Shown: positions 1 through 37,329 of the stretch, in pieces
How the letters are laid out: each line of letters begins with the position of its first letter
How positions within the stretch are numbered: position 1 is the first letter of the stretch
Translations under genes and position numbers: made by a program
The notes under the pieces: generated by a model
The model's input: the letters and a program-made list of their open reading frames with translations, nothing else
What the model was told of the DNA's origin: nothing
Database searches by the model: none
From: a virus
Length of the DNA: 37,329 nt
IMG/VR virus record: IMGVR_UViG_3300045988_163332
Coordinates: 1-37,329 of that record
Direction: 5' to 3' (one strand)

Positions 1-89
1 ATTTTTTTTTAAAAAATCTCTTGACGTCCCAGTGGGATAGGGTTAATATTTTCTTAACTTGCAAGTGAAAAAATACTTGACGGTCTCAG
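1..89. repeat. Left copy of the 89-bp direct repeat, identical to 37241..37329. Terminal direct repeat of a linear genome or circular-contig overlap.
   Basis: Bases 1..89 are base-for-base identical to 37241..37329. The window ends inside the palindrome ggtctcagagacc, which is complete at 82..94. Confidence 0.9.
21..49 (+). promoter_or_regulatory. Sigma-70-like promoter P1: TTGACG, 17-nt spacer, TAATAT.
   Basis: -35 ttgacg at 21..26, 17-nt spacer, -10 taatat at 44..49. Lies inside the terminal repeat upstream of gene 134..418. Confidence 0.6.
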
Positions 90-105
90 AGACCAGATGT
101 ATGAT
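77..105 (+). promoter_or_regulatory. Sigma-70-like promoter P2 (TTGACG, 17-nt spacer, TATGAT). A 13-bp perfect palindrome ggtctcagagacc (82..94) sits in its spacer and is a candidate operator.
   Basis: -35 at 77..82, -10 at 100..105. The palindrome has 6-bp arms around one central base. The promoter runs across the repeat boundary at 89. Confidence 0.55.
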
Positions 106-133
106 AAGAAAAAACTAATAGGAGAGTGATATA

Positions 134-418
134 ATGAAAGCTTATAGTGTTAGCGAAATAATAGAAGAAGCAGAGGTTTACAATGACTTAGGTGTTTATA
201 CTCTTGAAGATTTAAAAGAGATGACAGAAGAATTTAGTAACAGTAAAAACTTTTTGTCAGATGATGAAATTTTTGCAATAAGAGAAGCATTGGCTGCTGA
301 AGATGGAAAGAGTTTAATTTGGATATTGCTAAATAATGATATTATTGTTTTTGACAGTTATTGTCCACATGAATTAAGAGATAATATTGTAATTAGTGAA
401 TTTGAAATAGAAGATTAA
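134..418 (+). CDS. Strongly acidic 94-aa hypothetical protein. First gene at the left genome end; candidate DNA-mimic or anti-restriction protein.
   Basis: ATG at 134 with SD aggagag 7 nt upstream. About 24 Asp/Glu against about 7 basic residues. Two tandem strong promoters upstream and a hairpin terminator downstream. Confidence 0.6.
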   Translation: MKAYSVSEIIEEAEVYNDLGVYTLEDLKEMTEEFSNSKNFLSDDEIFAIREALAAEDGKSLIWILLNNDIIVFDSYCPHELRDNIVISEFEIED

Positions 419-457
419 TACATGAGCCTTTTAAATCGTTTTTAAGAGGTTTAAAAA

Positions 458-490
458 AGAGAGGTATATATTTACCTCTCTTTTTGTTTT
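458..490. terminator. Bidirectional rho-independent terminator between gene 134..418 (plus) and the holin gene (minus).
   Basis: Stem agagaggta / tacctctct with loop tatatt. T-run on the plus strand and A-run upstream, so it reads as a terminator on both strands. Confidence 0.6.
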
Positions 491-525: not shown

Positions 526-981
526 TTATTTTTTCTTGTATTCTTGATATTGAACTAATACTTTTTTTATTTTCTCTGGAATAGGTACTCCACAGATACT
601 TGCATTTTCTAATATAGAAAGTCCCTCATTTGAAATAAAAACTCCTATTGTTAATGTCTTTATTCCTAATTTACTACCAAGTAGTATGTCTAAGTGGTAT
701 GCTAATACTATAACTAGAATTATCATAACCTTTTTTAGCATTCCTATTATACCTAGTTTACTATTAGCAGTACAAGTAATGTAAGCTTTGATAACTCCAG
801 ATATATAATCAACTGCCATAAGTATAAGTAATATTCTTAAAGCTTCATCTTGCCCACCTGTAATCATAAAGATAAAGGCTACTAAACTTCCTATTCCTAT
901 TGCTACACAATTACTTAAAATTTTTATTACATCAACCAACAACCAAAAGAAATCTGTTGCTATTCTAGTAAAATCTCCCAT
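526..981 (-). CDS. Holin of the TcdE / phage_holin_4_1 family.
   Basis: 151 aa with several hydrophobic segments and a charged C-terminus. The C-terminal block SILENASICGVPIPEKIKK matches the TcdE-family motif SILKNMCLCGLPVPKRLKEK. Last gene of the lysis cassette. Confidence 0.75.
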   Translation of the reverse strand: MGDFTRIATDFFWLLVDVIKILSNCVAIGIGSLVAFIFMITGGQDEALRILLILMAVDYISGVIKAYITCTANSKLGIIGMLKKVMIILVIVLAYHLDILLGSKLGIKTLTIGVFISNEGLSILENASICGVPIPEKIKKVLVQYQEYKKK

Positions 982-3035: not shown

Positions 3036-3914
3036 CTAATCTGTTATTATTAAAGTCCAACCATTAATTATTAAACTTCCACAAGTTAAACCAGAGTTAG
3101 TAACTATTGCTCCTAATACTGTTAGATTTTGTGTAATAGTTCCACCAGATGTTGGAAGTTTTGTATTATCAGCTATTGTAATATTGGCACTACCATTAAA
3201 ACTAACTCCGTTGATAGTTCTAGCAGTTTGCAATTTTGTAGCAGTAGCAGAGTTTCCTATACAAACATCAGCACTATCAGCAGTTGTAGCACTCTTTGCT
3301 TTATCTTCTTTACCTAATTTATTATCTAATAAATTATTAGTTTCAGTTTTAGTATATATATCTGGTTTATTTATTAGTTTTTCATAATCAGTAGTTCCAG
3401 GTTGACCGCTTTGTCCTGGTATCCCTTGTTGACCTCTAGGGGCAGTAAAATCATATGTGCTACCATTAGTTAAAGTCACAGTATAAACATTTCCACCATC
3501 TTCATTAGTATTCTTAAATGTTATACTTTTTACTCCTACTCCATCAGCTCCTTTAGGACCTTGAATACCTTGCTCTCCAGTATCTCCCTTAGGTCCTTGA
3601 GGACCAGTATTTCCAGTTATACCTTGTTCCCCTTTATCTCCCTTAGGTCCTTGAATACCTTGAGGACCTTGGGGACCTTGTGGTCCAGTATCTCCCTTAT
3701 CTCCTTTAGGACCTTGAATACCTTGCTCTCCAGTATCTCCTTTAGGACCTTGAGGACCTTGTATTCCTTGCTCTCCTTTTGCACCAGGTAAACCTTGAAT
3801 ACCTTGTTCCCCTTGTATTCCTTGTTCTCCTTTAGGACCTTGAGGTCCGATATCTCCTTGTTCTCCTTTAGGACCTTGAGGACCTACAACATTACCTATA
3901 ATTAATTTTGGCAT
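3036..3914 (-). CDS. Collagen-like repeat protein, a second tail fibre or fibre subunit.
   Basis: Residues 11..125 are continuous Gly-X-Y triplets (nt about 3540..3884), mostly GPQ, GPK, GEQ and GIQ. The C-terminal part is globular and rich in Thr, Asn and Gly. Confidence 0.6.
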
Positions 3915-3927
3915 AATTAAAACCTCC

Positions 3928-5307
3928 TTATTCTAAAATTTCTAATACCAAATTCCCATCTTCATCTATTGAAAAATTTGGTTGAGTATCATTCTCGTTA
4001 TAATATACAACTAAGTTTCCATCTTCTATTTGGAATATGTACTGACTATTTATAGGAGTGATTACAGCAGTTCCATTATCTCCTTTATCTCCCTTATCTC
4101 CTTTAGGACCTTGTATTCCTTGAGGACCTTGGGGTCCGATATCTCCCTGCTCTCCCTTAGGTCCTTGTTCTCCTTGTATTCCTTGAATGCCTTGTTCGCC
4201 TTTTAGTCCTTGAAGTCCTCTTTCTCCTTGAATACCTTGTTCCCCTTGTATTCCTTGAATACCTTGAGGACCTGTTATTCCTTGAGGACCTTGAGGTCCA
4301 ACTTCTCCTTGTATTCCTTGCTCTCCTTGAATACCTTGAGGTCCATTTTCCCCTCTTTCTCCTTGGTCTCCTTTATCTCCTTTGAATCCTCTTTCTCCTC
4401 TTTCCCCTTTCGGTCCTTCTGGTCCATCATTGCCTTGAATACCTTGAGGACCTCTTCGTGCTAATAATTCTCCTATAATTTCTCCGTCTTCACGGTAGAC
4501 TGTATAGACGTTTCCTTCTGGTAATTCTTTATTAAAACCAACACTTGCTATTGAGTACCCTCTTTCTCCTTTTAAATCTTGCATATGATAGTCTATATAA
4601 TCTTGGATTTCTTTTTCTGCTTCTTCTATTTTTTCTTGTGTATATTTATCTAATTTTAAATAACTATCTGTTTTAAGATAATTATCAATAATTTCTTTTA
4701 AATCTTTTTCTAATTGAATAACTAGCTCTTTTACTCTATTATCCAAATCTTCAAGTAATATTTTTTTTGTATCTTCATAAATCTTATTGAGCAACTCTTG
4801 ATATTTCTCAAATAGTGTAGTTACAGGATAAGTAGCTATCCCATCATCTGACATATACCAGATAGAACCTTTTGGTAAATCTGGTAAACCTAATTGTTTG
4901 GGTATTCCACTATCTACAAATAATTGAGATTTTATAATTTCTTTTTCTGTTCCAAGTATTGCAGCTTTTATTTTAGTAAACATATTATTTAGATTTTCTG
5001 GTGTAATATCTCCTGTACTACTAAAAGTAAAATCTAAATCAAAATAAGGTTCAGACTTAACTATCTTAATATCTGTGTAATCATTCCATATGTCATCTGG
5101 GTAGTTAGTAAAATCAATGTTTCCAGCATTGTATGTGTAATAATCTTTAGGTATAAGGAATATAAAAGCTGTGCTAGTTATAGGATTTTGTTTTTTCCCA
5201 TAGACTTCACAACTTGTCATTAAGTCTGAAAAGCTAGTAGCATACTGTTGTCTATTCTCTTCTAACTTAAAATACTCTTTTTTAAAATTTAACATTTGCT
5301 TAAACAC
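3928..5307 (-). CDS. Tail fibre protein with an internal collagen-like triple-helix region.
   Basis: 459 aa. The N-terminal part is globular. Residues 286..412 are Gly-X-Y repeats (nt about 4072..4452), followed by a short C-terminal beta-rich tail. Confidence 0.6.
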
Positions 5308-5315
5308 CTCTTTTC

Positions 5316-6827
5316 TTAATAATAAGTTGTTAGTGGTCCATCAAAACTATCTTTTAGATATATGCTAGCAAATATCATAGCAGTTCTAAATGAATCTGCG
5401 TCATCAGAAGCTTTATCATTTGCGTCGTGGTCTGGTATATCTAAGTAACAGTTCATGGACTTGTTATATTTTTTGACATAGCCTCCTAATTGTATAACTC
5501 CTATGTTACACTCGTTATTATCTATCTCTACATTTTCAAACTCCTTTCTTATATAGTTGATTTGATTTATTAATGTAGTCATATCATTTTTAGCTAGCTC
5601 TGTCTTAGATAGAGTTCTTACATCACTAAAATAATTTAATCTTATGTAGTCACTTCTTTTTGAAGTTGCACTCCATTCCTCGACATCTCCATCATGTGGT
5701 AGTACCATAGTAGGCTGCATATAGTACCCATTATCTTTGCACCATTTTTTTATATATTGGCAGCAGTGGTCTGGTCCTTGTCCAGTAACTCTATAATGTT
5801 TTATGAATCTAATTCTATTATTGTGAGGGTTCTTTTGAAAAAACCATAATACTGTATGGTCCCTTTTTCCTATATCCCAAGCAACATATAAAGGTTGTTG
5901 TGTCCAGAAATGCCCTGTGTATATTTGAGTATATCTTCTACTTACACTATCCAATAACTCTTCATACCTACCATAAAACTTTATCCTTTCATCTTCATAA
6001 GCTTTTTTTAGTTGTTCTCCATACCAAGCACCAACTAGATGAGTATTGATTTTACATTCCCACTCTTGAGCGTATGAATCGGGGTCCATAGTAAGAGCTT
6101 GTTTTCTAAGTTCTTTATCATTTATTACCCTCTCCCCTTTATAGTTCAAGGAATCTTTTCCAGATTGAATATCTACATACCACATATCTTTAATTTCTTT
6201 ATTTTCTGGTTTACTTAGGATAGTGAAGTAATCTATAAAAAGTTTAGTAAACCAATTATATTTACCCCTTGGTGTAGAGATAAATATTACAAAACCAAAG
6301 TCTGTGTTATTGATAACCATATCAACTGCAGGTTTCATATATTGATAGAACTTTTCTTTTATAAGTGCTGCCTCTGTATAAATAACTCCTCTAGCTCCTA
6401 CCCCTACACTTGCGTCTGGGTTATCTCCTCCACGAAAGAAGATTTTTGCTCCGTTAAATAAAGTTACACTCCAATCTGATTTATTAACTTTAGGTCCTCT
6501 TGGATTTGCTAGTATTTCATCTGGTATAAGATTTTCAAGTAAAGGTAACCCGTTTAATGTCTTCCCATCTACAACTATCTCCTTTACCTGTCTAAAATAT
6601 GGTGCATAGATATAGTAGTTTCCTGGGTGTTGAATAGCTGCTAGTATCATAATGAGTAGTGAAATAAAGTCCTTTCCATATCTTCTATGAGCCATTAGTG
6701 CAAAATACTTTTTCTTATTTTCCAAGACATTGTCCAGAAGTTCTTTCTGTCCTTTGTGTAGATATTTAATAACTTTTTTATAACTGATGGTTACTCTTCT
6801 TTTTGCTGCTCTTCCTAAAAAATTCAA
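5316..6827 (-). CDS. terL: Terminase large subunit (ATPase plus RNaseH-like nuclease).
   Basis: N-terminal deviant Walker A (AHRRYGKDF, nt about 6669..6680). A Walker B-like block follows ([12 protein letters not shown]). Nuclease motifs in the C-terminal half include [21 protein letters not shown] and [13 protein letters not shown]. Its location, separated from the small subunit gene, is unusual. Confidence 0.6.
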
Positions 6828-7217: not shown

Positions 7218-7246
7218 GGGGAGTGTTGCAGCACTCCTCCTTTTTT
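7218..7246. terminator. Bidirectional hairpin terminator just downstream of the stop of the 1633-aa gene.
   Basis: Stem ggagtg / cactcc with loop ttgcag. T6 on the plus strand (7241..7246) and T5 on the minus strand. Confidence 0.55.
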
Positions 7247-10200
7247 ATTCTCCTACTATTTTTTCTGCTAAATCATATCCTGTTTTAGCCATATTAACAT
7301 TTGATGTACCTAGTCCTAGTTTTAAAATATTTGCTCCAGCTTTTTCAAAATCTCCTTTAGATAAATTTTGAGCTATCTGTATAGGTCTTCTTGCTACTGC
7401 TGAACCATTAACTAAAGCCCAAGAGTTTATTTGAGAATCTAGTACTTCCCAAAATGCACTACCTGGACTATCTATTAAATCATCTATTTTTTCATTGATA
7501 GTTGCTATTGGGTCAGTGTAAAAATCTAAGTCGGTTACAAGTGCTAGTCCTCCATATAGTCCTGTTACTCCTAAGATATGTTTGAATAATCTTTTTTGCC
7601 ATATCTTATTGCCCCAATCAAAATGCCCATCTACTATATTAGAGGCGTATAAATCTCTTCCCAATCTTCTCCATTGTTCTTGTATAGAAGTTTTGAAGTT
7701 TCCCATCAACCTCATAAAATTTCTGTGGATAGGATTTTCAATATTTTCAATGACAGCTCTCATAGAAGCATTAGTTTCAGTAGGGGAAATATCAGTAACT
7801 ATTTTGTCATGTAACTTAGTTATTTTTTCAGTAATATTTTTTCTTATTAAGTCAAATTCTTCATTGTATAGAACTCTTCCTAATTGTTTTTCTACTTCTG
7901 ATTTATTTATAAAATCAAATAAGTCAACTTCATTAAATACACCTAACTCATTAAATTCTGGAATATCTTTTAATTTTTTTATGAAATAAAAGTCTAAATC
8001 ATCTATACCTACATTTTTAAATAAATTTTTCATATAGGCAGTATTATTTTTAAATAAATCATCTAAGTCTTGAAATTTACTCATATTTCTTAAAATCTCT
8101 GCACCCTCAAAAAAAGCTGCAAGTTTCATAACCTTTTGGCTCTCTCCATAAAAATTTAATTTATTAAGTCCTGTGTCTATTCCACTAATTATCTTTTCCC
8201 ATTTGCTACCATACTTATTTATCCTTTCTGCTATCTCTCCTGTTACATCATCTGCCTTATCCATAATAGAATTGAAAAATTTTAAAGGTACTGAATATTC
8301 AAATCTACTTCCTAAAGCTTTATCATATTTATCAAACATTTCTTTACTTAGATATAGCACTTGTGCAGCCTTTAAAAAATTTTTATAAGTTTCAGTAATA
8401 CCTGCTGAATTATATAACATAGTGCTAGCCCTTGCCATTGTTGGTGCTTCAAATATAAAGTCCTTTGTAAATTTAAGCCCTGTTAAACTAACTTTATTAC
8501 TATAACTTAAAAAATTAGTAATAGCTTTGTCTGCTATTGTTTTTGGTGGTTTTGTAATTCTTCCTAAATCCATTCCTATTCTATCATCTATTTTTTTCTC
8601 AATGGCTCTAACTAAAGTTTTATAAGTATCATTTGCAGTTTTTCTTTGAGTTTCATTCAAGATTCTTTCTATACCATTCATTCCATGTCCTGGTAAATTA
8701 TCTTTAATGGCTTTAGCTACTGAAATTTCTCTTATAAATCTTCTAATAGCTGTTCTATCAGAAGTCTTATTTTTATTTACAAGTCTTGTTAGATTTTTTC
8801 TTTTTATAATTTTTTCTCCATTAATAAAGTCATCAAATCTACCAAATCTATGAAGATGTCCTCCGAGAAATTTATTTTTGTAACTTCCTTTCTTACTCAT
8901 CATATCCATAGTATAAAAATATTTTGCATTATTTTTTCTACTTTCTAATATATTTTGAGCTATAAGGTTAGTATCCACCTCTTTGTAAAAGTCTGATTTT
9001 TCAATAAATTCTTTTATTTGTGGTATTCCCTCAAGTTTATATTTTTTAACAAGTGCTTTCTTATCTGATGAACTCATACACTCATTAGCTTTAGCCATTA
9101 ATTTTATAATTTTTTCTTTAGGAGCTTTATTCTTTCCTTTAAGATTATTAATTAAAGTTTCTGGTGTTGATTCAAAGAACTCTAAATTATCTTCTGCAAA
9201 AGCATTTCTTATAGTAAGCAATCTTTCTGGGATATTAAGTTCTACTAAATCATCATAACTCAAATCTCCTCTTATAAATTTATCTAAATCAACCTTTTTA
9301 TCATCTCCTAGATACTTCAATATATCTTCTTGTCTTATATATTTTTCTGCACTTAGGTTGTGGTCAAACATAAAATTATTGACAATGTCATCTACTGTTA
9401 TCTCATAACCATTTGTCAATTCTTTCATAGTGCTATAAAACTCTTCTCTTAATCTTAGTATCTCTGGTTCAAGCTCTTTTAAGCTATCTGGTAAACTTTT
9501 ATAATTCCATCTAAATAGATAATGAGTTAGATTTTCTCCATTCTCTTCAAATAAACTTATTAATTTATCTGGATTTAATTTCTCGCCTTTATAAGTTATA
9601 TTGAAAGCATTAGTTAGCATACCTTCCATTTGTTGCTTAGTTTTCTCGTATGGAATAAATAAATTTGTTTCAAGATATTCGCTCATAAGTGATGAAGCTT
9701 GTCCAACGTCTTTAGCTTTCCAAAATATTTCTGGTATATCATTTTTCCACTTAGCATACTTACTAAAACTTTTTCTAAGTTCTGCTATTTTTTTACCTGG
9801 GTCTTTTATTCCTTTTACAGAATCAATCATATTTGAAAATGCTACTATGTCTTCAGTTCCTGTATTTTTAGGTAATTGTAAATCAAGTAATTCTACAGTT
9901 TCAGAATTTATTTTACCATTTTTTAACATGTTATTTATTTTGTCATTTATTATATAACTAATCTCAAAATTTACATCTGGATATTTAGAAAAATGTCCTT
10001 TTGTCATATCTTCTATAGCTTCTCCAAATGTCATATCTGCTATATCTTTTTTTTGAAATTTTATACTCTTAAATCCTGGAGCTTGGTATTTGTCTATTGC
10101 GTGTTCTATTTCATGCCTTAAAGTACCTAGTTTTAAATCTAAATCATCTTTCATCATTAATGGATTTAAACTTATTTTTATTTCTCTTTGGTTACTTGAA

Positions 10201-12146
10201 TTTATCCTACTTCTAGTAACTCCATAAACACTTGTAAATTGCTCTTCAGTTTCTCCTAAATATTCAAAATCTATTTTATATTTTTTCTTATAAAATTCAG
10301 CCATTTCTTCTGGAGTGTTTATATTATATTTTTTTCTAACTGTCTCCCCTGCTTTTTTTATTATTTTTTCATGTATATCTCTTATTTGTGTCTTGTCAAC
10401 TGTGCTATCAAGTCCTAGTTCTTTATAAACTATTTTTTTTACTTCTTCAACACTTATAGGTTTTATTGGCTCTGGGGTTCCATTCATATCATCTACTATA
10501 TTAGTTACTTTTCTTTGAGGTGTTATATTTTTTTGTGTTCCTGGTGCTGCATTAACATCAAGCTCGTATGTATCTCCTAAATATCCATATTGCTCTGTAA
10601 GTCTATAATCTCCATAATATTTCTTACCATCTATTTCATATTCAAAGTTGATATGGGCATCTCCCTTTAACCATTTTTTTCTAGTAATTGGAGTTCCATG
10701 TTCTGTAATATGTACTAAGTCTTGATATGGTGTTTTCTCAATAGCTCCTCTTACATACTTAACATTTGCACCTGGTGGAATAATTCCATCTTTTTCAAGA
10801 TTTGCTTGTAATGTTCCTGTTGGAAAATCTCTATAATTATGCTTTATTTTTCTTTTTTTTCTTTCAAAAGTTTCATTATCAACTATATGATGTTGTACTT
10901 TCATATCTTCAAATAAAGGTTCATAGCCACTATCATTGCCATTAAGATTTTTATCAACCTCTTCCATCATTCCTGGAACATCAACTCTTACATCAGTTAT
11001 CTTGTCTGGGTTAGTCAAGTCTAAAAAGAACTCAAAAGCTTTCTTTTCTCCCTCTCCAAGCTTTCCACTATCAATATATTCTTTTGCTAAATTTCTTATA
11101 AGAATTGGATTTTCATTTAAAATTTTATTGAAGTCAGCTCCGTTTTTAATAAAGTCTATATCTGGGTCATCTATCATTTTCAAGACAATAGACCTAGCAT
11201 ATAAGTCAGCTTGAAATTTATTAACATCATTTATATATAAATGCTTAAATAAAAATCTTTCACTACCTTGAGAGCCTTTATATTCATTTATAATACCTAG
11301 ATTATCTTTTATTCCTACTGTATTTTCTAAATCTTTTATAGTCATATCTCCATTATTTAATATAGAGCTTTCTTGTATTTTTTTATCAGCCTCTGAAAAT
11401 AGATTTATTATTATTTCTTGGGATTTCTTTTTTCTTGCTATATTATCAAACTTAGTTTCTATTTTATTAGCTACCTTACCTATTCCCATTCCTAGACCAG
11501 CAAATAAAAGTCCTGCACCAGCTCCACCAACTCCAGAATAAATAATCTCATCAAGTTCTGGAGTTCTACCCTCTGATATATAAATATCTGCACTTTCTTG
11601 TACCATATTTTCTATACCATTTAAAACTGCCGTTGTTCCAAGTCTACCAGCTACAGAAGTAGCTCCTATATATCCTGCAACATATGGACTTAAAAGAGTA
11701 GTCCCAAGTAATACAGGGAGTTGTCTTACATCAGTAGCAACTCTTAAACTCTCTGCTCCTGCACTCATAGCCCACTTTTGAGTTATATTGGGTTCTAATT
11801 CTATTTTTTTTCTAAAGCTATCTTTAAAGTTACTTGCAAAATCTTTATATTTTATATGGTTTTCCTCTGCCGTTTTTAAAAAATCTATAGGTTTTGTTTC
11901 TCCTGTTGCACTTTTATATGCAGCTCCTAACCAACTATAGTAAGTTGATTTTGCAATATTTTTAGAACTAGATAATATATCTCCTATAATTTCTAATTGT
12001 GGTATATCGTAAGATACTTTATTACCTACAACGTTGAATTTTTCTATATTTTCTTTGTTAGCCTCATAATATTCTTTATTTATTTTAATTACATCATCAT
12101 TACCCTCTAAAGATAATTTATTACCATAAGTTACAAGTCCTGCCAT
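7245..12146 (-). CDS. Giant (1633 aa) internal virion or ejection protein, gp16-like by position. It carries an embedded thermolysin-like (gluzincin) metallopeptidase motif and an N-terminal glycine-rich hydrophobic region.
   Basis: HEIEH is encoded at 10101..10115 and GEAIED at 10008..10025, matching the thermolysin pattern HExxH...NEAISD. A Gly/Ala-rich hydrophobic stretch spans residues about 145..225 (nt about 11472..11714). It is the last of a small/medium/giant trio (178, 694 and 1633 aa). Confidence 0.6.
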   Translation of the reverse strand: MAGLVTYGNKLSLEGNDDVIKINKEYYEANKENIEKFNVVGNKVSYDIPQLEIIGDILSSSKNIAKSTYYSWLGAAYKSATGETKPIDFLKTAEENHIKYKDFASNFKDSFRKKIELEPNITQKWAMSAGAESLRVATDVRQLPVLLGTTLLSPYVAGYIGATSVAGRLGTTAVLNGIENMVQESADIYISEGRTPELDEIIYSGVGGAGAGLLFAGLGMGIGKVANKIETKFDNIARKKKSQEIIINLFSEADKKIQESSILNNGDMTIKDLENTVGIKDNLGIINEYKGSQGSERFLFKHLYINDVNKFQADLYARSIVLKMIDDPDIDFIKNGADFNKILNENPILIRNLAKEYIDSGKLGEGEKKAFEFFLDLTNPDKITDVRVDVPGMMEEVDKNLNGNDSGYEPLFEDMKVQHHIVDNETFERKKRKIKHNYRDFPTGTLQANLEKDGIIPPGANVKYVRGAIEKTPYQDLVHITEHGTPITRKKWLKGDAHINFEYEIDGKKYYGDYRLTEQYGYLGDTYELDVNAAPGTQKNITPQRKVTNIVDDMNGTPEPIKPISVEEVKKIVYKELGLDSTVDKTQIRDIHEKIIKKAGETVRKKYNINTPEEMAEFYKKKYKIDFEYLGETEEQFTSVYGVTRSRINSSNQREIKISLNPLMMKDDLDLKLGTLRHEIEHAIDKYQAPGFKSIKFQKKDIADMTFGEAIEDMTKGHFSKYPDVNFEISYIINDKINNMLKNGKINSETVELLDLQLPKNTGTEDIVAFSNMIDSVKGIKDPGKKIAELRKSFSKYAKWKNDIPEIFWKAKDVGQASSLMSEYLETNLFIPYEKTKQQMEGMLTNAFNITYKGEKLNPDKLISLFEENGENLTHYLFRWNYKSLPDSLKELEPEILRLREEFYSTMKELTNGYEITVDDIVNNFMFDHNLSAEKYIRQEDILKYLGDDKKVDLDKFIRGDLSYDDLVELNIPERLLTIRNAFAEDNLEFFESTPETLINNLKGKNKAPKEKIIKLMAKANECMSSSDKKALVKKYKLEGIPQIKEFIEKSDFYKEVDTNLIAQNILESRKNNAKYFYTMDMMSKKGSYKNKFLGGHLHRFGRFDDFINGEKIIKRKNLTRLVNKNKTSDRTAIRRFIREISVAKAIKDNLPGHGMNGIERILNETQRKTANDTYKTLVRAIEKKIDDRIGMDLGRITKPPKTIADKAITNFLSYSNKVSLTGLKFTKDFIFEAPTMARASTMLYNSAGITETYKNFLKAAQVLYLSKEMFDKYDKALGSRFEYSVPLKFFNSIMDKADDVTGEIAERINKYGSKWEKIISGIDTGLNKLNFYGESQKVMKLAAFFEGAEILRNMSKFQDLDDLFKNNTAYMKNLFKNVGIDDLDFYFIKKLKDIPEFNELGVFNEVDLFDFINKSEVEKQLGRVLYNEEFDLIRKNITEKITKLHDKIVTDISPTETNASMRAVIENIENPIHRNFMRLMGNFKTSIQEQWRRLGRDLYASNIVDGHFDWGNKIWQKRLFKHILGVTGLYGGLALVTDLDFYTDPIATINEKIDDLIDSPGSAFWEVLDSQINSWALVNGSAVARRPIQIAQNLSKGDFEKAGANILKLGLGTSNVNMAKTGYDLAEKIVGE

Positions 12147-30832: not shown

Positions 30833-30862
30833 ACTTTTTCAACTCCTTTTATAACTAATTTG

Positions 30863-31711: not shown

Positions 31712-31890
31712 TGTCACAAGATGTAATGTTCTTAAAATATATCAATGAGAAATGGGGAGTTCTTACAGTAAGAAGATTTAAAAAATTTTATATAGTAAAC
31801 GCTGGAGAGTTCCACGGATATGGTTTAACAGTATCTGAAGCGATAGCAAATTTAGCACTTAATAATCAAGAGGAGGGAAAACTATGTTAG
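31711..31890 (+). CDS. Small hypothetical early protein. The ATG at 31711 overlaps the upstream stop; the ORF-track GTG at 31702 is less likely.
   Basis: taATG overlap with the stop of the upstream gene. Confidence 0.45.
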   Translation: MSQDVMFLKYINEKWGVLTVRRFKKFYIVNAGEFHGYGLTVSEAIANLALNNQEEGKLC

Positions 31891-32159
31891 ATAAAGAATT
31901 ATTAGAAGGATTTGAAACAATGCAACAATTACAAGATGATGGACTAATTGATTCTTATAATTATAACTCGAAAACAGGAGATTTTATGGTATTTTCTGGA
32001 CTTGGTAAAAAAGAAGTTAAGTTCCAGGTAGATATGGATAGTATGATGGAGTTTTTAGAAGAATGGGAAAAAGAAGTTGAAGAAGCTTTCCAAGATAAAA
32101 AAAGAGAAGAACAAGACAGAGAAGCAGCTTACTGGGCAGTCCAAGGGGTTAGATATTAA
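31884..32159 (+). CDS. Acidic hypothetical early protein (91 aa).
   Basis: ORF with RBS gaggaggg. Confidence 0.5.
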   Translation: MLDKELLEGFETMQQLQDDGLIDSYNYNSKTGDFMVFSGLGKKEVKFQVDMDSMMEFLEEWEKEVEEAFQDKKREEQDREAAYWAVQGVRY

Positions 32160-32226
32160 TGATAGCTTGGATAAAACATATATTAAAATTCAAAATTAAA
32201 TATAGCAAAATGTAGGGGGAATAAAA

Positions 32227-32475
32227 ATGTTAGCAGTAATGATGGAGAATTTAAAAGAAAAATACAGTATTAAAAATTTAGTTTGGGAGATAAAAAACAA
32301 TATAGTTTTCTTTAGTGGAGAACTTAAAAAAAATATAGTTGCTGGATATGTAGGAGAAAAACCAGTAAGTTATGAGAAAAAATTAGATTTTAATAGCTTT
32401 AGGGTAGCAGATGAAAAAGTAGAAAAAGAAATTGATGACTTTTTCCAAATGCTTGAAAATGTTTTTAATAAATAA
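32227..32475 (+). CDS. Small hypothetical early protein (82 aa).
   Basis: ORF with RBS taggggga. Confidence 0.5.
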   Translation: MLAVMMENLKEKYSIKNLVWEIKNNIVFFSGELKKNIVAGYVGEKPVSYEKKLDFNSFRVADEKVEKEIDDFFQMLENVFNK

Positions 32476-32548
32476 TTTAGTTTTTATAGGTTCCCCAAGA
32501 GCCTTGGGGGACTTATTAAAAATTAAATTGGAGGTGGTCTTTATGACT
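32474..32548 (+). repeat. Copy 2 of the triplicated intergenic unit (palindrome 32490..32512).
   Basis: Sequence tttagtttttataggttccccaagagccttgggggacttattaaaaattaaattggaggtggtctttatgact. Confidence 0.7.
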
Positions 32549-32680
32549 GATGTTAGATTAGAAAGACTTGATAACTACTTTGATGAGGAGTTAGAAGAAG
32601 TTAGAGAAGCTGCAGCAGATATGACAGAAAAAGAGCTTAGAGAATTTTTAGAACTTTTAAATATTGAGGAGTGGTTTTAA
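32543..32680 (+). CDS. Small acidic protein (45 aa) starting MTDVRLERL. The ORF-track start at 32432 is a spurious upstream extension through the repeat.
   Basis: The ATG at 32543 is preceded by ggaggtgg inside the repeat unit. Confidence 0.45.
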   Translation: MTDVRLERLDNYFDEELEEVREAAADMTEKELREFLELLNIEEWF

Positions 32681-33192
32681 TGGCAAATATAATAAATTTA
32701 TTAGAGGACAAATTAGCATTAAATGAACTTTGGGAAAATTCCATTGATGAGAACACAGGAGAAATAAAAGAGTGTGAAGCTTTAGAGGCTTTAACAAAAG
32801 AAATAGAGCAAGATTTGAGCAGTAAAACAGGTAGAATTATACAGGTATTTCAAAATAATAAAGCACAAATAGAAGTGCTGGACAAGGAAATAAAAAGGCT
32901 TGAAGCTAGAAAAAAATCTTTAGAGAATAAAGATAAAAATTTTAAAAACTTTTTAAAATATACTCTTGAAAGAATAGGAGTAAAAAAAATAGATACTATC
33001 TTTGGAATAATAGGAATAAAAAATAATCCTGCAAGTGTAGAGCTTATAGACAAAGACAAAATACCTGCAGAATTTAAGACAATAAAATATGTTGAAGATA
33101 TTTCAAAAACTGAAATTTCAAAAGCTTTAAAGGCTGGGGTAGAAGTTCCAGGAGCAGAACTTAAACAAAGTACAAGTTTATATATTAAATGA
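32680..33192 (+). CDS. Gp157-like protein (Sipho_Gp157 family), of the kind commonly paired with phage annealing proteins.
   Basis: 170 aa and coiled-coil rich. The ATG at 32680 overlaps the upstream stop. It sits just upstream of the Rad52-like gene, as in other Firmicute phages. Family call from memory. Confidence 0.4.
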   Translation: MANIINLLEDKLALNELWENSIDENTGEIKECEALEALTKEIEQDLSSKTGRIIQVFQNNKAQIEVLDKEIKRLEARKKSLENKDKNFKNFLKYTLERIGVKKIDTIFGIIGIKNNPASVELIDKDKIPAEFKTIKYVEDISKTEISKALKAGVEVPGAELKQSTSLYIK

Positions 33193-33265
33193 TTTAGTTT
33201 TTATAGGTTCCCCAAGAGTCTTGGGGTACTTATTAAAAATTAAATTGGAGGTGGTCTTTATGACT
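33191..33265 (+). repeat. Copy 3 of the triplicated intergenic unit (palindrome 33208..33229).
   Basis: Sequence atttagtttttataggttccccaagagtcttggggtacttattaaaaattaaattggaggtggtctttatgact. Confidence 0.7.
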
Positions 33266-33883
33266 AAAGAAAAATTTCAAGAAATGTATTTAAAAGATTT
33301 AACAGGTATGATAGAAACAATAGACACAGGAAAAAGAAAGCTATCATATATTAGCTGGGCTAATGCTTACAAAATGGCTATGGAGCAAGACCTATCAATG
33401 AGTTATGAAATATTAGAAGATTTAGAGGGGTTTCCTTTATTCTCAAGAGGGGATTGCCACTTTGTAAAAACTACTGTTACTATGTTTGGAGTAACTAAAA
33501 AAATGATGTTACCTATTATGGACAATAGACATAATTCTATAAGCAAACCTAACAGTAGAGATATAAACGACAGTATAATGAGATGTCTTGTAAAAAATAT
33601 AGCAATGTTTGGTATAGGACTATCATTATACACTGGAGAGGATTTAGAAAAGTATAAGGAATCTAAAGAAGATAAAGAGGTTAAGGAAGTTGAAGAGCAA
33701 ATTACACCAGAAGAGAGGTCTAAATTTATAGAAGTTATAAACAAAAAATACTCTAAAGAGGATATAGACAAGGCTATATACTTAGTTAAGGAAAATGGTA
33801 GATTTGAATTTAATATCTACACAGCAAGTAAAAAAGAATTAAACTATTTAAAAGCAACTTTAAGAAGTTTAAAAACTGCATAA
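33260..33883 (+). CDS. Rad52-like single-strand annealing protein (Sak family).
   Basis: The ATG at 33260 follows the repeat RBS. YISWANAY and DSIMRCLVKNIAMFGIGLSLY resemble the Rad52 N-terminal-domain motifs YIS and D.lkRaL.sFGnaLG. Acidic C-terminal tail. Confidence 0.5.
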   Translation: MTKEKFQEMYLKDLTGMIETIDTGKRKLSYISWANAYKMAMEQDLSMSYEILEDLEGFPLFSRGDCHFVKTTVTMFGVTKKMMLPIMDNRHNSISKPNSRDINDSIMRCLVKNIAMFGIGLSLYTGEDLEKYKESKEDKEVKEVEEQITPEERSKFIEVINKKYSKEDIDKAIYLVKENGRFEFNIYTASKKELNYLKATLRSLKTA

Positions 33884-33889
33884 AATAAA

Positions 33890-33919
33890 AATGGCAGGTT
33901 TATTCCTGCCACTTTTATT
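33890..33919 (+). terminator. Rho-independent terminator ending the early operon.
   Basis: Stem ggcagg / cctgcc with loop tttatt, followed by acttttatt. Confidence 0.6.
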
Positions 33920-34035
33920 AAAGAATCTCGAATAACATATGACGATTAAAAAAAGCATCTTATATGGGGTTAAAAATTTGGATACAGTAGTATAATATAC
34001 TTTTAGGTATAAGTCAATATCTTTTTAAACAAAAA

Positions 34036-34375
34036 GTATAGAGGTACAAAATCCAATTTTTATAGGTACAACATCAAAATTAATGTACCTTTAAAAACTA
34101 CAAAATCCAAATTATAACTACATGTCCTTTTATTATTGTAGTTAATTTATTTCCTATTTAGAAGAATATCTTTATATTCTTGTTTCTTTTAATATATTTC
34201 GACACCTCTCAAACCTTTAATTTTAGAGGGCTAGAGAAGACAAAAAACGACAAAATCCAGAGTATTTAACTACAAAATCCAAAGCAAAAAACGACAAAAT
34301 CCAGAGTATTTAACTACAAAATCCAAAATATAGAACTACAAAATCCAAAATTTAACGACATTATTTATTGACTAT
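34036..34375. repeat. Iteron-type replication origin. About 8 copies of ACAAAATCCA(A/G), including a 45-bp unit repeated twice in tandem. Inverted repeats and an AT-rich unwinding stretch lie alongside.
   Basis: Copies at about 34044, 34094, 34250, 34272, 34295, 34317, 34339 and 34352. The sequence caaaaaacgacaaaatccagagtatttaactacaaaatccaaag occurs twice in tandem. Inverted repeats aggtaca..tgtacct and actaca..tgtagt. AT-rich stretch at 34140..34200. Confidence 0.65.
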
Positions 34376-34386
34376 GTAGTTTTAAT

Positions 34387-35544
34387 ATGATAAACTTTTC
34401 TATAAAAGGAGGGGTAAGCTTGGGAAAGGAAAACTACAATTTGATACACCACAAAGATTTTCATAAACTGCAACTGCAGAATTACAATGTAAAAGAAAGA
34501 GCAATATTTTTAACTCTATGTTTGAAACTTATGGAACAGGAAGATGATGTTGTTAGTTTAAAAATATCAGAACTAACAAAAATATCCAATTATTCTCCAA
34601 GAAAAAAAGGGGATAATATAATACTTTTTCTTAAAGAATTAAATGACAAATTAAAAACTATGGAAATAATACAAACTAAAGAAAATGGAGATTTTAAAAG
34701 TATAACATTGTTTCCAACTTTTGAAGTCAACCAAGATTTTGGAGAGGTAAAAATAAGAGTAAATCCAGATTATAAATATCTTTTAAATCATTTGCAACCA
34801 CCATTTACAATACAAGATGTAGTTGAATACTCTGGACTTAAAAGTGGATATTCTCAACTGATGTATAGCATTTTAAAAAATTGGAATAAAGCTAAGAAGA
34901 TTAGTTTTAAATTAGATGACTTTAAAAAAGAGATGGGAATACCTGAAAATTATAGAATTTGTGATATAGATAGCAGGGTTATAGCTCCAATAACATCAGA
35001 GCTTTCAGTTTTATTTCATGGGCTAAAGGTTGAAAAAATAAAAAATGGAAGGTCGGTAGCTGGGTTTGAGTTTACCTGGAAAGATAACAAGGTTGATGAT
35101 GTAGTAGTTGATGAAGAGGAAATAGAGATTTCAGAAGAGTTGCTATCAGCTATTGAGAAAGCAGAGAAAAACAGATTTATAAAACCTTTCTTGACTGATG
35201 ATAATATAATAAAACTTTTAGATAAATTTAGCCAAGAGCAATTAGAAAAAGGATTGAAAGCTGCTTATGATTTAATTAAAACAGAATTTACAAGTCTTAA
35301 TTATTTGATAAAAGTTATTGAAGATAGTTTGAATAAACCTAAAAGAAAAATAGTTATAAGAAGAACTAAGGAAGCAGAAAAAATAAAAGAAGTTGAAGAG
35401 CCAGTAGTCAAGAAAAAAACAACTCCACTAACTAATGAAGAATATCAAAATGCTATGAAGATATATCAAGCTACTGGAGAAGATTTTGGTTATGAACCAG
35501 AGGAAGTAAGAGAGTATATAAAAAAATATAAGGATTTAATATAG
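34387..35544 (+). CDS. rep: Plasmid-type replication initiator (iteron-binding Rep). Start may be the ATG at 34387 or the TTG at 34430.
   Basis: 385 aa, immediately downstream of the iterons. Strong RBS aaggaggggtaagc before the TTG at 34430. Followed by parA. Confidence 0.55.
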   Translation: MINFSIKGGVSLGKENYNLIHHKDFHKLQLQNYNVKERAIFLTLCLKLMEQEDDVVSLKISELTKISNYSPRKKGDNIILFLKELNDKLKTMEIIQTKENGDFKSITLFPTFEVNQDFGEVKIRVNPDYKYLLNHLQPPFTIQDVVEYSGLKSGYSQLMYSILKNWNKAKKISFKLDDFKKEMGIPENYRICDIDSRVIAPITSELSVLFHGLKVEKIKNGRSVAGFEFTWKDNKVDDVVVDEEEIEISEELLSAIEKAEKNRFIKPFLTDDNIIKLLDKFSQEQLEKGLKAAYDLIKTEFTSLNYLIKVIEDSLNKPKRKIVIRRTKEAEKIKEVEEPVVKKKTTPLTNEEYQNAMKIYQATGEDFGYEPEEVREYIKKYKDLI

Positions 35545-35553
35545 GGGGGTAAA

Positions 35554-36312
35554 ATGAAAATAATATCATTTATAACAGAAAAAGGTGGCACTGGTAAGAC
35601 TACTGGTGCCAGAGAAGTTGCTGGGGTACTATCTCTAGTTCATAATAAAAAAGTTTTGCTTATTGATTGTGACTTTCAACAAAATCTAACTGAGAGTTTA
35701 ATAGAAGCAGACCAAGAAAAAAATATATTTAGAGCCATAAAAGAGAAAGATTTAAAAGGAAATATAATTCCTATTGAAAGAGATGGAAAACATATATTAG
35801 ATTTAATACCTGCAAGTCTTAATTTAAAGGACTTGGAATATAAAAAAGACAGTGTTGATATGGAAATGATTTACCTAGATTTAAAAAAAGGACTAGAGCA
35901 ACTCCAAGAATATGACTATATAATTATAGATTGTAGACCAGATATGAGAGCAATAGAAAGGGCTGTGTTAAAGTGCAGTAATTATGTTATCACTCCTGTT
36001 GAAGCTCATCTATTTAGTTTTAGAGGGTTTGAATTATTAGAGAACTTTATACAAGCTCTTAAAAAGGATTTAAACACTCCATTCATTCATTTTGGATATA
36101 TAAACAGGCTACAAAATGACAAAGAGATATTAGAAGCCACTGAAGATGTCAGAAGTTCTTTTGATAACATATTAGATACTCCTATAAGAGATAACCTTAA
36201 AATATTTAAAGCCTCACAGACAGGACATTTTATAATAGAATATAGTTCTACATCAAATGGGGCTAAGGATTTTAAAGCTCTTACAAAGGAGTTGTTGAAT
36301 AAATGGCAATAA
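35554..36312 (+). CDS. parA: ParA/Soj-type partition ATPase.
   Basis: Deviant Walker A KGGTGKTT near the N-terminus (MKIISFITEKGGTGKTTGA). 252 aa. Confidence 0.85.
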   Translation: MKIISFITEKGGTGKTTGAREVAGVLSLVHNKKVLLIDCDFQQNLTESLIEADQEKNIFRAIKEKDLKGNIIPIERDGKHILDLIPASLNLKDLEYKKDSVDMEMIYLDLKKGLEQLQEYDYIIIDCRPDMRAIERAVLKCSNYVITPVEAHLFSFRGFELLENFIQALKKDLNTPFIHFGYINRLQNDKEILEATEDVRSSFDNILDTPIRDNLKIFKASQTGHFIIEYSSTSNGAKDFKALTKELLNKWQ

Positions 36313-36968
36313 AAATAAATAGAAAACCTATAATTTTAAAAAAGAAAGAAAATACAGAAGTAATTATTCCAGAAAAAAATGACATAGAAGATATATTGAA
36401 ATACGATTATAACAAATTGGAAAATTTTTCAGATGATGATAAAAATCAATTAATTATATTTGAGAAAAGTATTATCACTAAAAAAGAAAATATCTCTTCT
36501 TTAGCACTACAAATAGGGCAAAATTTGGAAGAGGCAAGAAAACTATTTGATAGATACTCTGAAAATCCAAGTTCATATATGGAGTGGTACCAAGCTTTAG
36601 GATTTAATAAAGACCAAGTATCACTACTTAGAGGGAGATATAAGTTATCTTTAAGCTATCCACAATACAACAATTTAATTTCAGACTTTTCAGACAGAGA
36701 AGTAAAAGCTTTAGTGAATAAAAAGGTTAATGTAAGAATCCTTGAGAATATTTTATCTTCTGGAATAAGAACAGATAAAGAAATAAGAAAAGCTATTTCG
36801 AGCATGCTCGAAATAGAAGATGCCGAGATAGTAGAGGAATCTGAAAAAGATAAGCTGGTATCCAGACTATCGGAGGTAGAGGCGAAAATCAGAAAATTAG
36901 AGGAAGAGTTGAAAGAGTTGAAAACTGTTAAGGCTGAACTAAAAGAAAAGATAAAGGGGTTGAGCTAA
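36303..36968 (+). CDS. ParB-like or centromere-binding partner (221 aa) with a C-terminal coiled-coil.
   Basis: Overlaps the parA stop. Assigned by position only. Confidence 0.4.
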   Translation: MAIKINRKPIILKKKENTEVIIPEKNDIEDILKYDYNKLENFSDDDKNQLIIFEKSIITKKENISSLALQIGQNLEEARKLFDRYSENPSSYMEWYQALGFNKDQVSLLRGRYKLSLSYPQYNNLISDFSDREVKALVNKKVNVRILENILSSGIRTDKEIRKAISSMLEIEDAEIVEESEKDKLVSRLSEVEAKIRKLEEELKELKTVKAELKEKIKGLS

Positions 36969-37225
36969 TGAAATTAAAGGATTTATTAAAAGGAAATAGA
37001 GAAAATATTCAAAGTATAACTATAACAAATGGGTTGATAACATATTTTAAAAATGATGTAGAAGTTTTAGATATTATAGACATACAAGATGGATATAAAA
37101 TTATTGTTGGGGATATTACTTTAAAATTAGATGAGTTCCAAGCGAGTATAGAAAGTTATTATAGTACAGATAAAATATTTTATTTTGACTTAATTGATTT
37201 TAAGGTTGATTTAAAATTAAAATAG
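36968..37225 (+). CDS. Small hypothetical protein (85 aa), last gene before the terminal repeat.
   Basis: ATGA overlap with the upstream gene. Terminator immediately downstream. Confidence 0.4.
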   Translation: MKLKDLLKGNRENIQSITITNGLITYFKNDVEVLDIIDIQDGYKIIVGDITLKLDEFQASIESYYSTDKIFYFDLIDFKVDLKLK

Positions 37226-37250
37226 AGGAATTTTTCCTCTATTTTTTTTT
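37224..37250 (+). terminator. Rho-independent terminator abutting the start of the right terminal repeat.
   Basis: Stem agagg / cctct with loop aattttt, followed by T9. Confidence 0.6.
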
Positions 37251-37329
37251 AAAAAATCTCTTGACGTCCCAGTGGGATAGGGTTAATATTTTCTTAACTT
37301 GCAAGTGAAAAAATACTTGACGGTCTCAG
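37241..37329. repeat. Right copy of the 89-bp direct repeat. Contains a complete copy of the first left-end promoter.
   Basis: Identical to 1..89. It begins right after the hairpin terminator at 37224..37250. Confidence 0.9.

Follow-up and report, generated by a model that had tools for sequence, protein, structure and literature searches.

Small acidic proteins encoded in accessory regions and expressed from strong promoters with dyad symmetries are typical of acr-aca loci. Phage T7 offers a second precedent in Ocr (gp0.3), a small acidic protein served by the tandem strong host-RNA-polymerase promoters A1-A3, and ArdA and sArdA (PMC12548430), anti-restriction proteins of plasmids and transposons, are small and acidic and are found on plasmid-like elements that must establish themselves in restricting hosts. 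A further precedent is the moron in the sense of Juhala and Hendrix (Cumby et al. 2012, PMC3594210), whose classical definition includes expression from repressed prophages. In HK97, for example, the moron gene 15 stands alone with a promoter and terminators of its own where related genomes have two adjoining genes, and phage factors are apparently unnecessary for its transcription. The locus described here resembles acr-aca operons in its small acidic product, its strong dyad-bearing promoter and its accessory location, resembles Ocr, ArdA and sArdA in the points just named, and has the organization and apparent self-sufficiency of HK97 gene 15.

The locus lies at the start of a 37,329-nt stretch of viral DNA (hereafter the window), and an earlier note on this DNA had placed it at a genome end. 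The first 89 bp of the window (1..89) are identical to the last 89 bp (37241..37329), and this exact prefix/suffix identity ends inside a palindrome at 82-94. A sibling contig, k109_72942, measures 37,349 bp (37,240 + 109), and related contigs from other assemblies are linearised at different points, with the acidic gene internal. These three observations indicate that the sequence is a circle of 37,240 bp and that the repeat is a k-mer overlap left by the assembler rather than a terminal repeat of biological origin. The genome-end location therefore falls away, and with it the proposal that the promoters lie partly inside a terminal repeat. The gene had also been described as alone on the plus strand at the left end; this does not hold either, since on the circle it comes after a plus-strand block at 31884-37225.

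The circle carries both phage genes (CI/S24 repressor, Gam, Sak, terminase, portal, tail fibres, holin and endolysin) and plasmid genes (Rep3, with Rep3_N/C, and ParA), and 22-bp iterons (4.7 copies) lie upstream of rep. No integrase was found in the element, a serine invertase alone being present. Since a single circle without an integrase thus unites genes for plasmid replication and partition with genes for phage structure and lysis, we class the element as a circular temperate phage-plasmid of 37.2 kb with a Fusobacteriota-type host. The closest relatives of its Rep are found on Fusobacteriaceae plasmids; two of these with related Rep (L009 and L010) were considered as phage-plasmids and rejected as ordinary plasmids. 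In IMG/VR, a ParA profile returned only five relatives, all already identified, and distant ParAs. The acidic gene is internal in over 30 related contigs from gut metagenomes, with the plasmid partition genes (Rep3, iterons, ParA) on one side and the holin on the other.

Within this arrangement the acidic gene occupies a fixed slot at the par/lysis junction. On the left of the slot lies a gene for an 85-aa protein (36968..37225, plus strand), the last of the rep/par operon, whose start overlaps the stop of a gene for a 221-aa protein; on the right lies the holin gene (526..981, minus strand), assigned by a profile match to Phage_holin_4_1. Alignment with empty-site relatives (L012 and L014) set the boundaries of a cassette of ~440 bp. 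Its left 15 bp (37226..37240, plus strand) stand directly 3' of the TAG that ends the 85-aa gene, the rest spans 1..424 on the same strand, and the right boundary falls between ACATG and AGCC at 424/425, with G/AG microhomology at both junctions. A cassette-bearing relative (L025) and a cassette-free one (L012) have backbones that are 99.6% identical up to the left boundary. In L012-L014 the 85-aa gene, which is present there without the acidic gene and is absent from another relative (L011), directly abuts the terminator and holin.

Cargo in this slot is swapped between near-identical elements, and four states have been seen so far among the relatives: the acidic cassette, an empty site, a non-coding insert, or the PADLOC candidate defence pair PDC-M04A/B together with a gene for a 55-aa protein. 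The defence pair occurs in a sister element, with matches at E 1.7e-75 and 7e-43. The 55-aa gene (L017, sister element) is unrelated to the acidic gene, and the two-promoter module described below precedes it as well.

Terminators bound the acidic gene on both sides. The upstream one is an intrinsic terminator at 37223..37250 (plus strand; TAGAGGAA-TTT-TTCCTCTA, then T9), whose hairpin covers 37223-37241 and whose T-run corresponds to bases 2-10 of the window. It folds at -12.4 kcal/mol (z -3.3), is conserved in all cassette copies and, being carried by the cassette, is predicted to insulate it from the par operon. On the downstream side, a bidirectional terminator had been noted after the gene, and it is borne out as an intrinsic terminator at 454..485 that is shared with the convergent lysis operon and predicted to be stable on both strands (-22.4 and -18.0 kcal/mol, z ~ -5.4). 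This second terminator also occurs in relatives without the cassette and is therefore assigned to the backbone. The acidic gene is the single gene between the two terminators and is thus monocistronic.

By these observations the unit appears to be a moron, that is, an optional cassette of ~440 bp comprising a terminator, promoter(s) and one gene. The assignment follows from its own promoter(s) and terminators (the upstream terminator being its own), from its precise presence or absence on backbones of 99.6% identity, at a point where relatives have two neighbouring genes and no insert, and from the varying content of the slot. The distinct base composition of morons is not seen here: the G+C content of the acidic gene is 27.7%, compared with a genome gene mean of 30.2% and 21%-33% in its neighbours. 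Relative to morons such as HK97 gene 15, the cassette therefore differs in having a G+C content like that of its backbone, and also in its phage-plasmid carrier, in promoters that match those of a host defence operon and in its orphan product.

Two tandem sigma-70-like promoters had been proposed upstream of the gene, and both are recovered at the sequence level. P1 (21..49, plus strand; TTGACG-17-TAATAT) has an A6 tract directly upstream and agrees with the consensus at 9/12 positions; P2 (77..105, plus strand; TTGACG-17-TATGAT) also has an A6 tract upstream and agrees at 10/12. The number of promoter-like matches in such AT-rich DNA does not exceed the chance expectation (19 observed vs 15.1 +/- 4.1 in shuffles), and the credibility of P1 and P2 comes not from match count but from conservation and reuse elsewhere. 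P1 is present in all 18 cassette copies examined, and P2 with its palindrome in 8 of the 18. When the promoter DNA was compared with phage and plasmid collections, no match was found; a match in L020 was rejected as a chance 18-mer within a high-G+C coding region.

Each promoter spacer holds a palindrome, a candidate operator, centred on its position 6: TCCCAGTGGGA (27..37) in P1 and GGTCTCAGAGACC (82..94) in P2. GGTCTCAGAGACC is the genome's sole 6+1+6 palindrome with G+C-rich arms. This 13-bp palindrome, which had been singled out as the operator, is perfect and lies in the P2 spacer, but it is absent from 10/18 copies. TCCCAGTGGGA is unique in the genome; L017 and L110 retain its arms and have C in place of G as the central base. 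A third palindrome, ACTTGCAAGT (57..66), lies just 3' of the P1 -10 element. Putative CI operators (ATAAC-N7-GTTAT) are clustered at 30851-30942 only, and this motif has no match at P1 or P2. Control of the two promoters by CI was rejected at the sequence level, as the putative operator differs from these palindromes and is confined to that cluster.

With three dyad symmetries within 70 bp, and with parA and the 221-aa gene directly 5' of it, the region might be taken for the partition centromere of the par operon or for a regulatory region of that operon, its palindromes being parS-like and the ORF incidental. We consider this extremely improbable and reject it, because the par genes are retained in relatives that have no cassette: L011 encodes a 100%-identical 221-aa protein and a 99% ParA, yet is without the cassette and the three palindromes, and L012-L014 are also without the cassette. 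Moreover, the palindromes lie inside promoter spacers and recur before unrelated genes, and the ORF is under purifying selection. Rfam gave no match in the window or in L011.

The acidic gene (134..418, plus strand) is preceded by the ribosome-binding site AGGAG (120..124, plus strand), 9 nt 5' of its ATG. Its product has 94 aa, a mass of 10.9 kDa and a pI of 4.05, and the earlier description of it as small and strongly acidic is confirmed by its composition: 24 D/E (D9 E15) against 6 K/R (K4 R2) and one H, with a net charge of ~ -18. This makes it the most acidic product of the 40 ORFs of the window. Comparison with a 95%-identical allele gave a dN/dS of ~0.25, indicative of purifying selection, and copies of the gene occur in many samples, on at least 35 contigs in all; both results argue that 134..418 is a real, selected gene. 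Neither a membrane segment nor a signal peptide was predicted from the sequence of the protein, which is most probably cytoplasmic.

Homology searches suggest that the protein is an orphan, without a homologue of known function. It had no match in Pfam, NCBIfam or PADLOC, and in PHROGs only phrog_528, a family of unknown function, was returned (E 0.06). Among PDB sequences at E <= 10 there was no known DNA mimic, GatE being the lone match (E 1.4), and tblastn against phages and plasmids gave no match. A word-indexed search recovered the 95%-identical allele and nothing else; to this, an exhaustive search added only a distant protein, P0002. Genome contigs scanned with the 94-aa protein, and then with a profile of the 221-aa protein, yielded no matches. 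No paralogy was found between the 94-aa protein and another acidic protein of 91 aa, the 85-aa neighbour or the 55-aa protein of L017. AlphaFold2 reached a pLDDT of 41.2 from the single sequence and 44.7 from an 11-row alignment that included P0002 repeats, values too low for a usable model or for a judgement on charge mimicry.

The exhaustive search provided the lead for one structural idea, that residues ~13-58 mimic the helix-hairpin-helix alpha-CTD of RNA polymerase, have acidic residues where that domain has its DNA-binding ones, and act as a decoy that would titrate a transcription factor. P0002 has 806 aa and 12 RNA_pol_A_CTD repeats, was matched at E 1.4e-7, and has the motif G-[IV]-x-T-[IL]-E-D-L...T-E in common with the 94-aa protein. 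That E-value, however, sums near-identical repeats, the best single pair scoring 32 bits, and a profile of the P0002 repeats gave the 94-aa query 12.3 bits. The hhalign probability was 9%, and 0.5% against canonical alpha-CTDs; there was no Pfam RNA_pol_A_CTD (PF03118) match, and the presence of P0002 repeats in the AlphaFold alignment still left the pLDDT as low as stated above. We rejected this lead on the repeat-profile score (assessed with shuffles), hhalign and AlphaFold, and regard it as close to refuted; a decoy of this kind would be most surprising.

The anatomy of the locus had also suggested an Ocr-type DNA mimic, carried on the DNA that enters the cell first and expressed from tandem early promoters, that blocks type I restriction or BREX. 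That anatomy stands: the product is acidic, with a size, acidity and pI within the range of Ocr, ArdA and sArdA (PMC12548430), and its monocistronic gene has tandem strong promoters of host type, with dyads, and a terminator. The argument from the genome end does not, and the T7 parallel of first-entering DNA fails with it: the end is an assembly artefact with no physical end evident, the gene is internal in all relatives, and the element is a temperate phage-plasmid rather than a T7-like lytic phage with ordered entry. Furthermore, P2 is dispensable, being kept in 8/18 copies, and no similarity to Ocr or ArdA was found in Pfam, NCBIfam or PDB. An Ocr-type mimic is thus very unlikely, and the protein differs from ArdA and sArdA as well, in that neither Pfam nor NCBIfam gave a match to an ArdA profile. 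The comparison with acr-aca operons is limited in other ways, as the cassette has no adjacent aca/HTH gene, its dyads lie within promoter spacers and no CRISPR link was found.

A more specific connection comes from host chromosomes. Both promoter types of the cassette also precede a chromosomal DdmD-like operon, on contigs of different Fusobacteriota strains. The window and the region upstream of the DdmD-like gene in L016 share 48 identical nt within a full alignment of 75 nt (89% identity, E 1e-20); a P2-type promoter is kept before the gene in L109 (87% orthologue), and a P1-type promoter stands at the same place in L110 (80% orthologue). The 1344-aa protein encoded downstream matches the PADLOC DdmD model at E 4e-15 over 855 profile positions. 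It also matches the helicase/UvrB-domain PDB chains 9bf1, 9ezx and 9khv (1190-1220 aa) at E 1e-18, which we infer to be V. cholerae DdmD because their length matches that of the PADLOC model. The adjacent 640-aa protein has the position and size expected of DdmE but is not recognisably DdmE, with no match in PADLOC, Pfam, NCBIfam or PDB. DdmDE is described as degrading small multicopy plasmids (PMC13064858), and a limited literature search found no natural DdmDE inhibitor. Through the recurring promoter types, a phage of plasmid-like habit is concretely and testably connected with a system that eliminates plasmids; the sharing of promoters could be a by-product of recombination, without a functional link to the defence operon.

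As it stands, the locus is an ordinary moron with an orphan gene. The account that we favour, at about an even chance, is an optional, self-transcribed moron in the par/lysis slot of a Fusobacteriota phage-plasmid, coupled to a model of its expression. Host RNA polymerase would transcribe the acidic gene without phage factors, so that expression would be immediate on DNA entry and would probably continue in the plasmid-prophage state. If expression follows a host factor that reads the dyads, it would track the DdmD-like operon. More speculatively, the 10.9-kDa protein, with its net charge of -18, would most probably act stoichiometrically; it may bind a host defence protein, DdmD-like or of restriction type, on a basic surface with which that protein contacts nucleic acid, and such binding would protect a plasmid-like replicon from elimination.

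Counter-defence of this kind is our leading guess at function, although less likely than not. An accessory role in defence or counter-defence is supported by the presence or absence of the cassette, by the candidate defence system that the slot holds in the sister element, and by the promoters in common with the chromosomal DdmD-like operon. Morons classically benefit the lysogen, through exclusion or defence, and a defence role is for this reason indicated as strongly as counter-defence. The cassette may be expressed from the resident plasmid-prophage and serve the host or the element rather than invasion, an alternative that is possible, if somewhat doubtful. The protein could then exclude superinfecting phages, serve as a small factor in defence or as a decoy, or modulate the DdmD-like system of the host itself so that the resident replicon can coexist with that system. 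The architecture agrees with the classical definition of a moron (PMC3594210), of which expression from repressed prophages is a part; neither promoter has a match to the putative CI operator motif; the same slot holds a candidate defence system in the sister element; and a host operon that is necessarily active in uninfected cells has the same promoters. Against such a benefit to the lysogen stand the lack of a PADLOC match for the 94-aa protein and, unlike many exclusion proteins, its lack of a membrane segment or signal peptide.

A narrower form of the counter-defence proposal, which we think unlikely, is that the protein represents a new family of natural inhibitors of DdmD-like plasmid elimination (or of another nuclease-type defence) in Fusobacteriota, and that the cassette copied the promoter and operator of the defence operon. 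If true, one host signal would induce both the inhibitor and the defence that it neutralises, and would do so equally strongly, amounting to counter-defence by promoter mimicry. Fusobacteria are genetically hard to manipulate, and a portable, compact promoter/5'-UTR module, possibly with a defence inhibitor, could provide useful parts for work with them.

Three elements of the cassette had been overlooked by the earlier note, namely the palindromes TCCCAGTGGGA and ACTTGCAAGT and the upstream terminator hairpin. In other cassette copies, ACTTGCAAGT is lengthened to the 16-bp palindrome TTAACTTGCAAGTTAA.

The first and last 89 bases of the window are exactly identical, the repeat ends in the middle of a palindrome, and without this redundancy the sequence is 37,240 bp long. 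From a different sample comes contig k109_72942, which encodes an exactly identical 94-aa protein and measures 37,349 bp, or 37,240 + 109; its 109-bp excess is a k-mer overlap. The related contigs of 37.3-37.8 kb are linearized at various points, and all of them carry the 94-aa gene internally. The genome end at which the earlier note had placed this gene, driven partly from within a terminal repeat, is thus an artefact of the 89-bp identity; the molecule may have a physical terminus somewhere, but nothing puts one at position 1. Calling it the sole left-end gene on the plus strand is biologically meaningless, since on the circle it comes after a plus-strand block at 31884..37225.

The element is a temperate phage-plasmid. 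Its leftward arm encodes a holin, an M15-type endolysin, collagen-like tail fibers, a large terminase, a portal-like protein and large unannotated virion proteins, and a CI-like repressor (HTH plus S24 peptidase) is encoded at ~30.2-30.8 kb. Between the repressor gene and the early operon, three ATAAC-N7-GTTAT dyads (30851-30942), which are putative CI operators, lie around a perfect TTGACA-17-TATAAT promoter at 30887-30915. The rightward operon specifies a Gam/Sipho_Gp157-like protein, a Sak annealing protein, a Rep3-type initiator, ParA, and proteins of 221 and 85 aa. Directly upstream of the initiator gene (34387-35544), 4.7 copies of a 22-bp iteron (alternatively, 2.5 copies of a 44-bp unit) at 34246-34349 are the likely plasmid origin. 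No integrase was found in the element; the sole recombinase found is a serine recombinase/DNA invertase (17256-17954, minus strand), which could act in resolution of plasmid multimers or in inversion of a host-range segment.

Several observations suggest that the host belongs to the Fusobacteriota: the best Rep matches are to Cetobacterium and Fusobacterium plasmids (33-41% identity), the G+C content is consistent, and DNA has been exchanged with chromosomal contigs of Fusobacteriota type. There is no close cultured phage: within the phage collection, no protein exceeds 27% identity to the terminase, whose nearest relatives there belong to marine Vibrio and Pelagibacter phages. Gene order is unusual, with the large terminase gene (5316-6827, minus strand) adjoining the tail-fiber genes and lying ~18 kb from the portal-like gene (24959-26467, minus strand). 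Two proteins encoded between them, of 1633 aa (7245-12146) and 694 aa (12146-14230), have no PHROG match. Both collagen-like (Gly-X-Y repeat) tail-fiber genes (3036-5307, minus strand) contain many 9/18/27-bp tandem repeats, and variation of these and downstream genes among otherwise close relatives suggests host-range mosaicism.

We aligned the junction around the 94-aa gene with eight contigs that bear a 95%-identical allele and with relatives from IMG/VR to which the 221-aa protein had led. Four states are seen of the slot that separates the par module from the holin gene. In the window type, the 85-aa gene is followed by a cassette containing the 94-aa gene and then by the holin gene; in three relatives (L012-L014) the cassette is absent and the 85-aa gene leads directly to the backbone terminator; in another (L011) the cassette is missing along with the 85-aa gene, and ~400 bp of non-coding DNA takes their place. 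In a sister phage-plasmid (L015/L017), the slot holds a PADLOC candidate defense pair (L017 5141-6435, equivalent to L015 4750-6044) matching PDC-M04A (DUF3800, E 1.7e-75) and PDC-M04B (E 7e-43), and then a 55-aa gene (L017 6766-6933) with its own bidirectional terminator. The non-coding DNA of L011 (4666-5070) is G+C-richer and bears an extended -10-like motif (TGTGATATAAT) on the minus strand; it could be a small RNA gene, but it has no Rfam match and its folding z-scores are only -1.1 to -2.0.

Cassette boundaries are sharp: the left one directly follows the 85-aa gene's TAG stop codon (37225/37226) and the right one is at 424/425 (ACATG-AGCC), with G-AG microhomology at both. One cassette-bearing contig (L025) and the cassette-free L012 share 99.6% backbone identity over 2.8 kb. 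Morons have been described as obvious additions to a genome that carry their own promoter and their own terminator (PMC3594210), and the cassette resembles them in each respect; unlike published morons, its base composition is not distinct (27.7% versus 30.2% G+C). It is a moron occupying an accessory hotspot, and we regard the overall description of a moron on a phage-plasmid as highly probable.

The cassette brings an upstream terminator, a hairpin followed by T9 (37223-37250, -12.4 kcal/mol, z -3.3), whose T-run is the one found at the very start of the window. Downstream it relies on a resident hairpin at 454-485 (-22.4 kcal/mol on the plus strand, -18.0 on the minus strand; z ~-5.4 on both), which is flanked by an A-run and, on its other side, a T-run and is therefore the bidirectional terminator that had been read from the sequence. 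The two tandem promoter-like sites were likewise found as described, both on the plus strand: P1 (TTGACG-17-TAATAT, 21-49) and P2 (TTGACG-17-TATGAT, 77-105). Such matches are not rare in this DNA (19 in 3 kb at 29% G+C, compared to 15.1 ± 4.1 in shuffles); therefore, the case for P1 and P2 is one of conservation and not of consensus match alone. P1 occurs in all 18 cassette copies examined. P2 and the perfect palindrome GGTCTCAGAGACC in its spacer (82-94), which the earlier note took for an operator, occur in only eight (the window, L021-L023 and L025-L028), with P2 missing from the other ten (L001-L008, L018 and L024).

The genome contains 20 perfect 6+1+6 palindromes, and of these GGTCTCAGAGACC alone has G+C-rich arms. 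Two further dyads had been overlooked: TCCCAGTGGGA in the P1 spacer (27-37) and ACTTGCAAGT directly 3' of the P1 -10 element (57-66), the latter lengthening to TTAACTTGCAAGTTAA in other cassette copies. Both spacer dyads are centered on spacer position 6, and both promoters have an upstream A6 tract where E. coli promoters have the proximal UP-element subsite. Neither spacer dyad has a further copy in the phage genome or resembles the putative CI operators; if the dyads are operators, the factor that binds them is most likely encoded by the host.

A metagenome scan for the design common to P1 and P2 located it in front of other genes. The whole module of P1, P2, leader and ribosome-binding site also precedes the unrelated 55-aa gene of L017, and on L016, a contig of 117 kb, P2 alone (48 identical nt) precedes a 1344-aa gene, with the full promoter alignment extending over 75 nt (89%, E 1e-20). 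The 1344-aa protein looks like DdmD, a plasmid-defense helicase-nuclease: it matches the PADLOC DdmD model (E 4e-15) and helicase/UvrB-domain PDB chains of 1190-1220 aa (E 1e-18), which we took to be V. cholerae DdmD structures because their length fits the PADLOC profile. Its operon continues with genes for an unannotated 640-aa protein, a ParA-like ATPase (363-365 aa) and a 236-aa protein, and this chromosomal four-gene arrangement, flanked by genes for a P-type ATPase and a gltA-like product, occurs on Fusobacteriota-like contigs at L016 4950-12904, L109 3930-11894 and L110 145-8106. L016 (28% G+C) looks like a Fusobacteriota chromosome, and its flanking P-type ATPase gene has 73% nucleotide identity to F. 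vincentii. A phage lysozyme gene (664-1101) on this contig has a product 76% identical (77% in DNA) to the endolysin of L014, which suggests that a related prophage is present and that genes have moved between this chromosome and the phage-plasmids of the family.

The P2-type promoter is kept in L109, whose 1344-aa orthologue is 87% identical. In the corresponding place, L110 and L111 (80%-identical orthologue) have a P1-type promoter, TTGCCA-TCCCACTGGGATGATTG-TATGAT. These allelic promoters contain different 11-13-bp dyads centered on the identical spacer position. Thus, a single promoter design heads the host DdmD-like operon in two allelic forms, P1 and P2, and the phage-plasmid morons have these in tandem. 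That both promoters of the moron are alleles of the promoter of a host plasmid-defense-like operon was the one unexpected result.

The gene itself (134..418, plus strand), with an AGGAG ribosome-binding site 9 nt 5' of its ATG, encodes the strongly acidic 94-aa protein originally noted (9 D, 15 E, 4 K, 2 R, 1 H; pI 4.05; net charge ~-18), the most acidic of the 40 window ORF products (-0.19 charge per residue). Comparison with the other allele (5 synonymous and 6 non-synonymous changes, dN/dS ~0.25) indicates purifying selection. The protein is an orphan: a word-indexed search of 5.8 billion proteins returned only the 95%-identical allele, its cluster has three members on ~35 contigs with identical context throughout, no match to a known family was found in Pfam, PHROG, NCBIfam, PADLOC or PDB sequences, and tblastn gave no hit in the phage and plasmid collections. 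Predicted helices span residues ~6-19, 24-35 and 43-54, followed by a hydrophobic stretch (60-73), with no signal peptide or membrane segment. Structure prediction, which the earlier note had proposed, yielded only AlphaFold models with pLDDT 41.2 from the single sequence and 44.7 with repeats of the metagenome protein P0002 in the alignment.

P0002 (806 aa, with 12 RNA-polymerase alpha-CTD repeats) was the one match added by an exhaustive HMMER search (E 1.4e-7). We dropped this lead: the E-value sums near-identical repeats, the best single pair scores 32 bits, the repeat profile gives the 94-aa query only 12.3 bits, hhalign assigns a probability of 9%, and the added repeats left model confidence low. 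The architecture of P0002, from an ENA metagenome contig, is odd in itself (a hydrophobic N-terminus, then the tandem alpha-CTD-like repeats; Pfam PF03118, E 7e-100) and has no relation to the 94-aa gene.

Without needing phage factors, host RNA polymerase would initiate at P1 and, in copies that have it, P2, yielding a transcript insulated from the par operon and ending at the shared terminator; expression would be set by whichever factor reads the dyads and would parallel that of the host DdmD-like operon. More speculatively, the acidic product may bind and block a host protein that itself binds nucleic acid. DdmDE-type systems have been reported to destroy small multicopy plasmids (PMC13064858), and since the element replicates as an iteron plasmid, such a system, or restriction, would be the most attractive class of target. 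A counter-defense role, which like the anatomy survives from the original interpretation, is a tentative possibility; a benefit to the lysogen through exclusion, defense or modulation is only slightly less likely. A specifically Ocr-like function of leading-end DNA is very improbable: the acidic product and tandem promoters that prompted it are present, but the T7 analogy was built on the genome-end artefact, and membership of the Ocr family was negative in every test that could be run.

The second most acidic window product (-0.13 charge per residue) is a 91-aa protein (31884..32159, plus strand; 23 D/E versus 11 K/R) that matches no family and is not similar to the 94-aa protein. Its gene is close to the start of the early operon under CI control, a more classical place for an early anti-defense gene.
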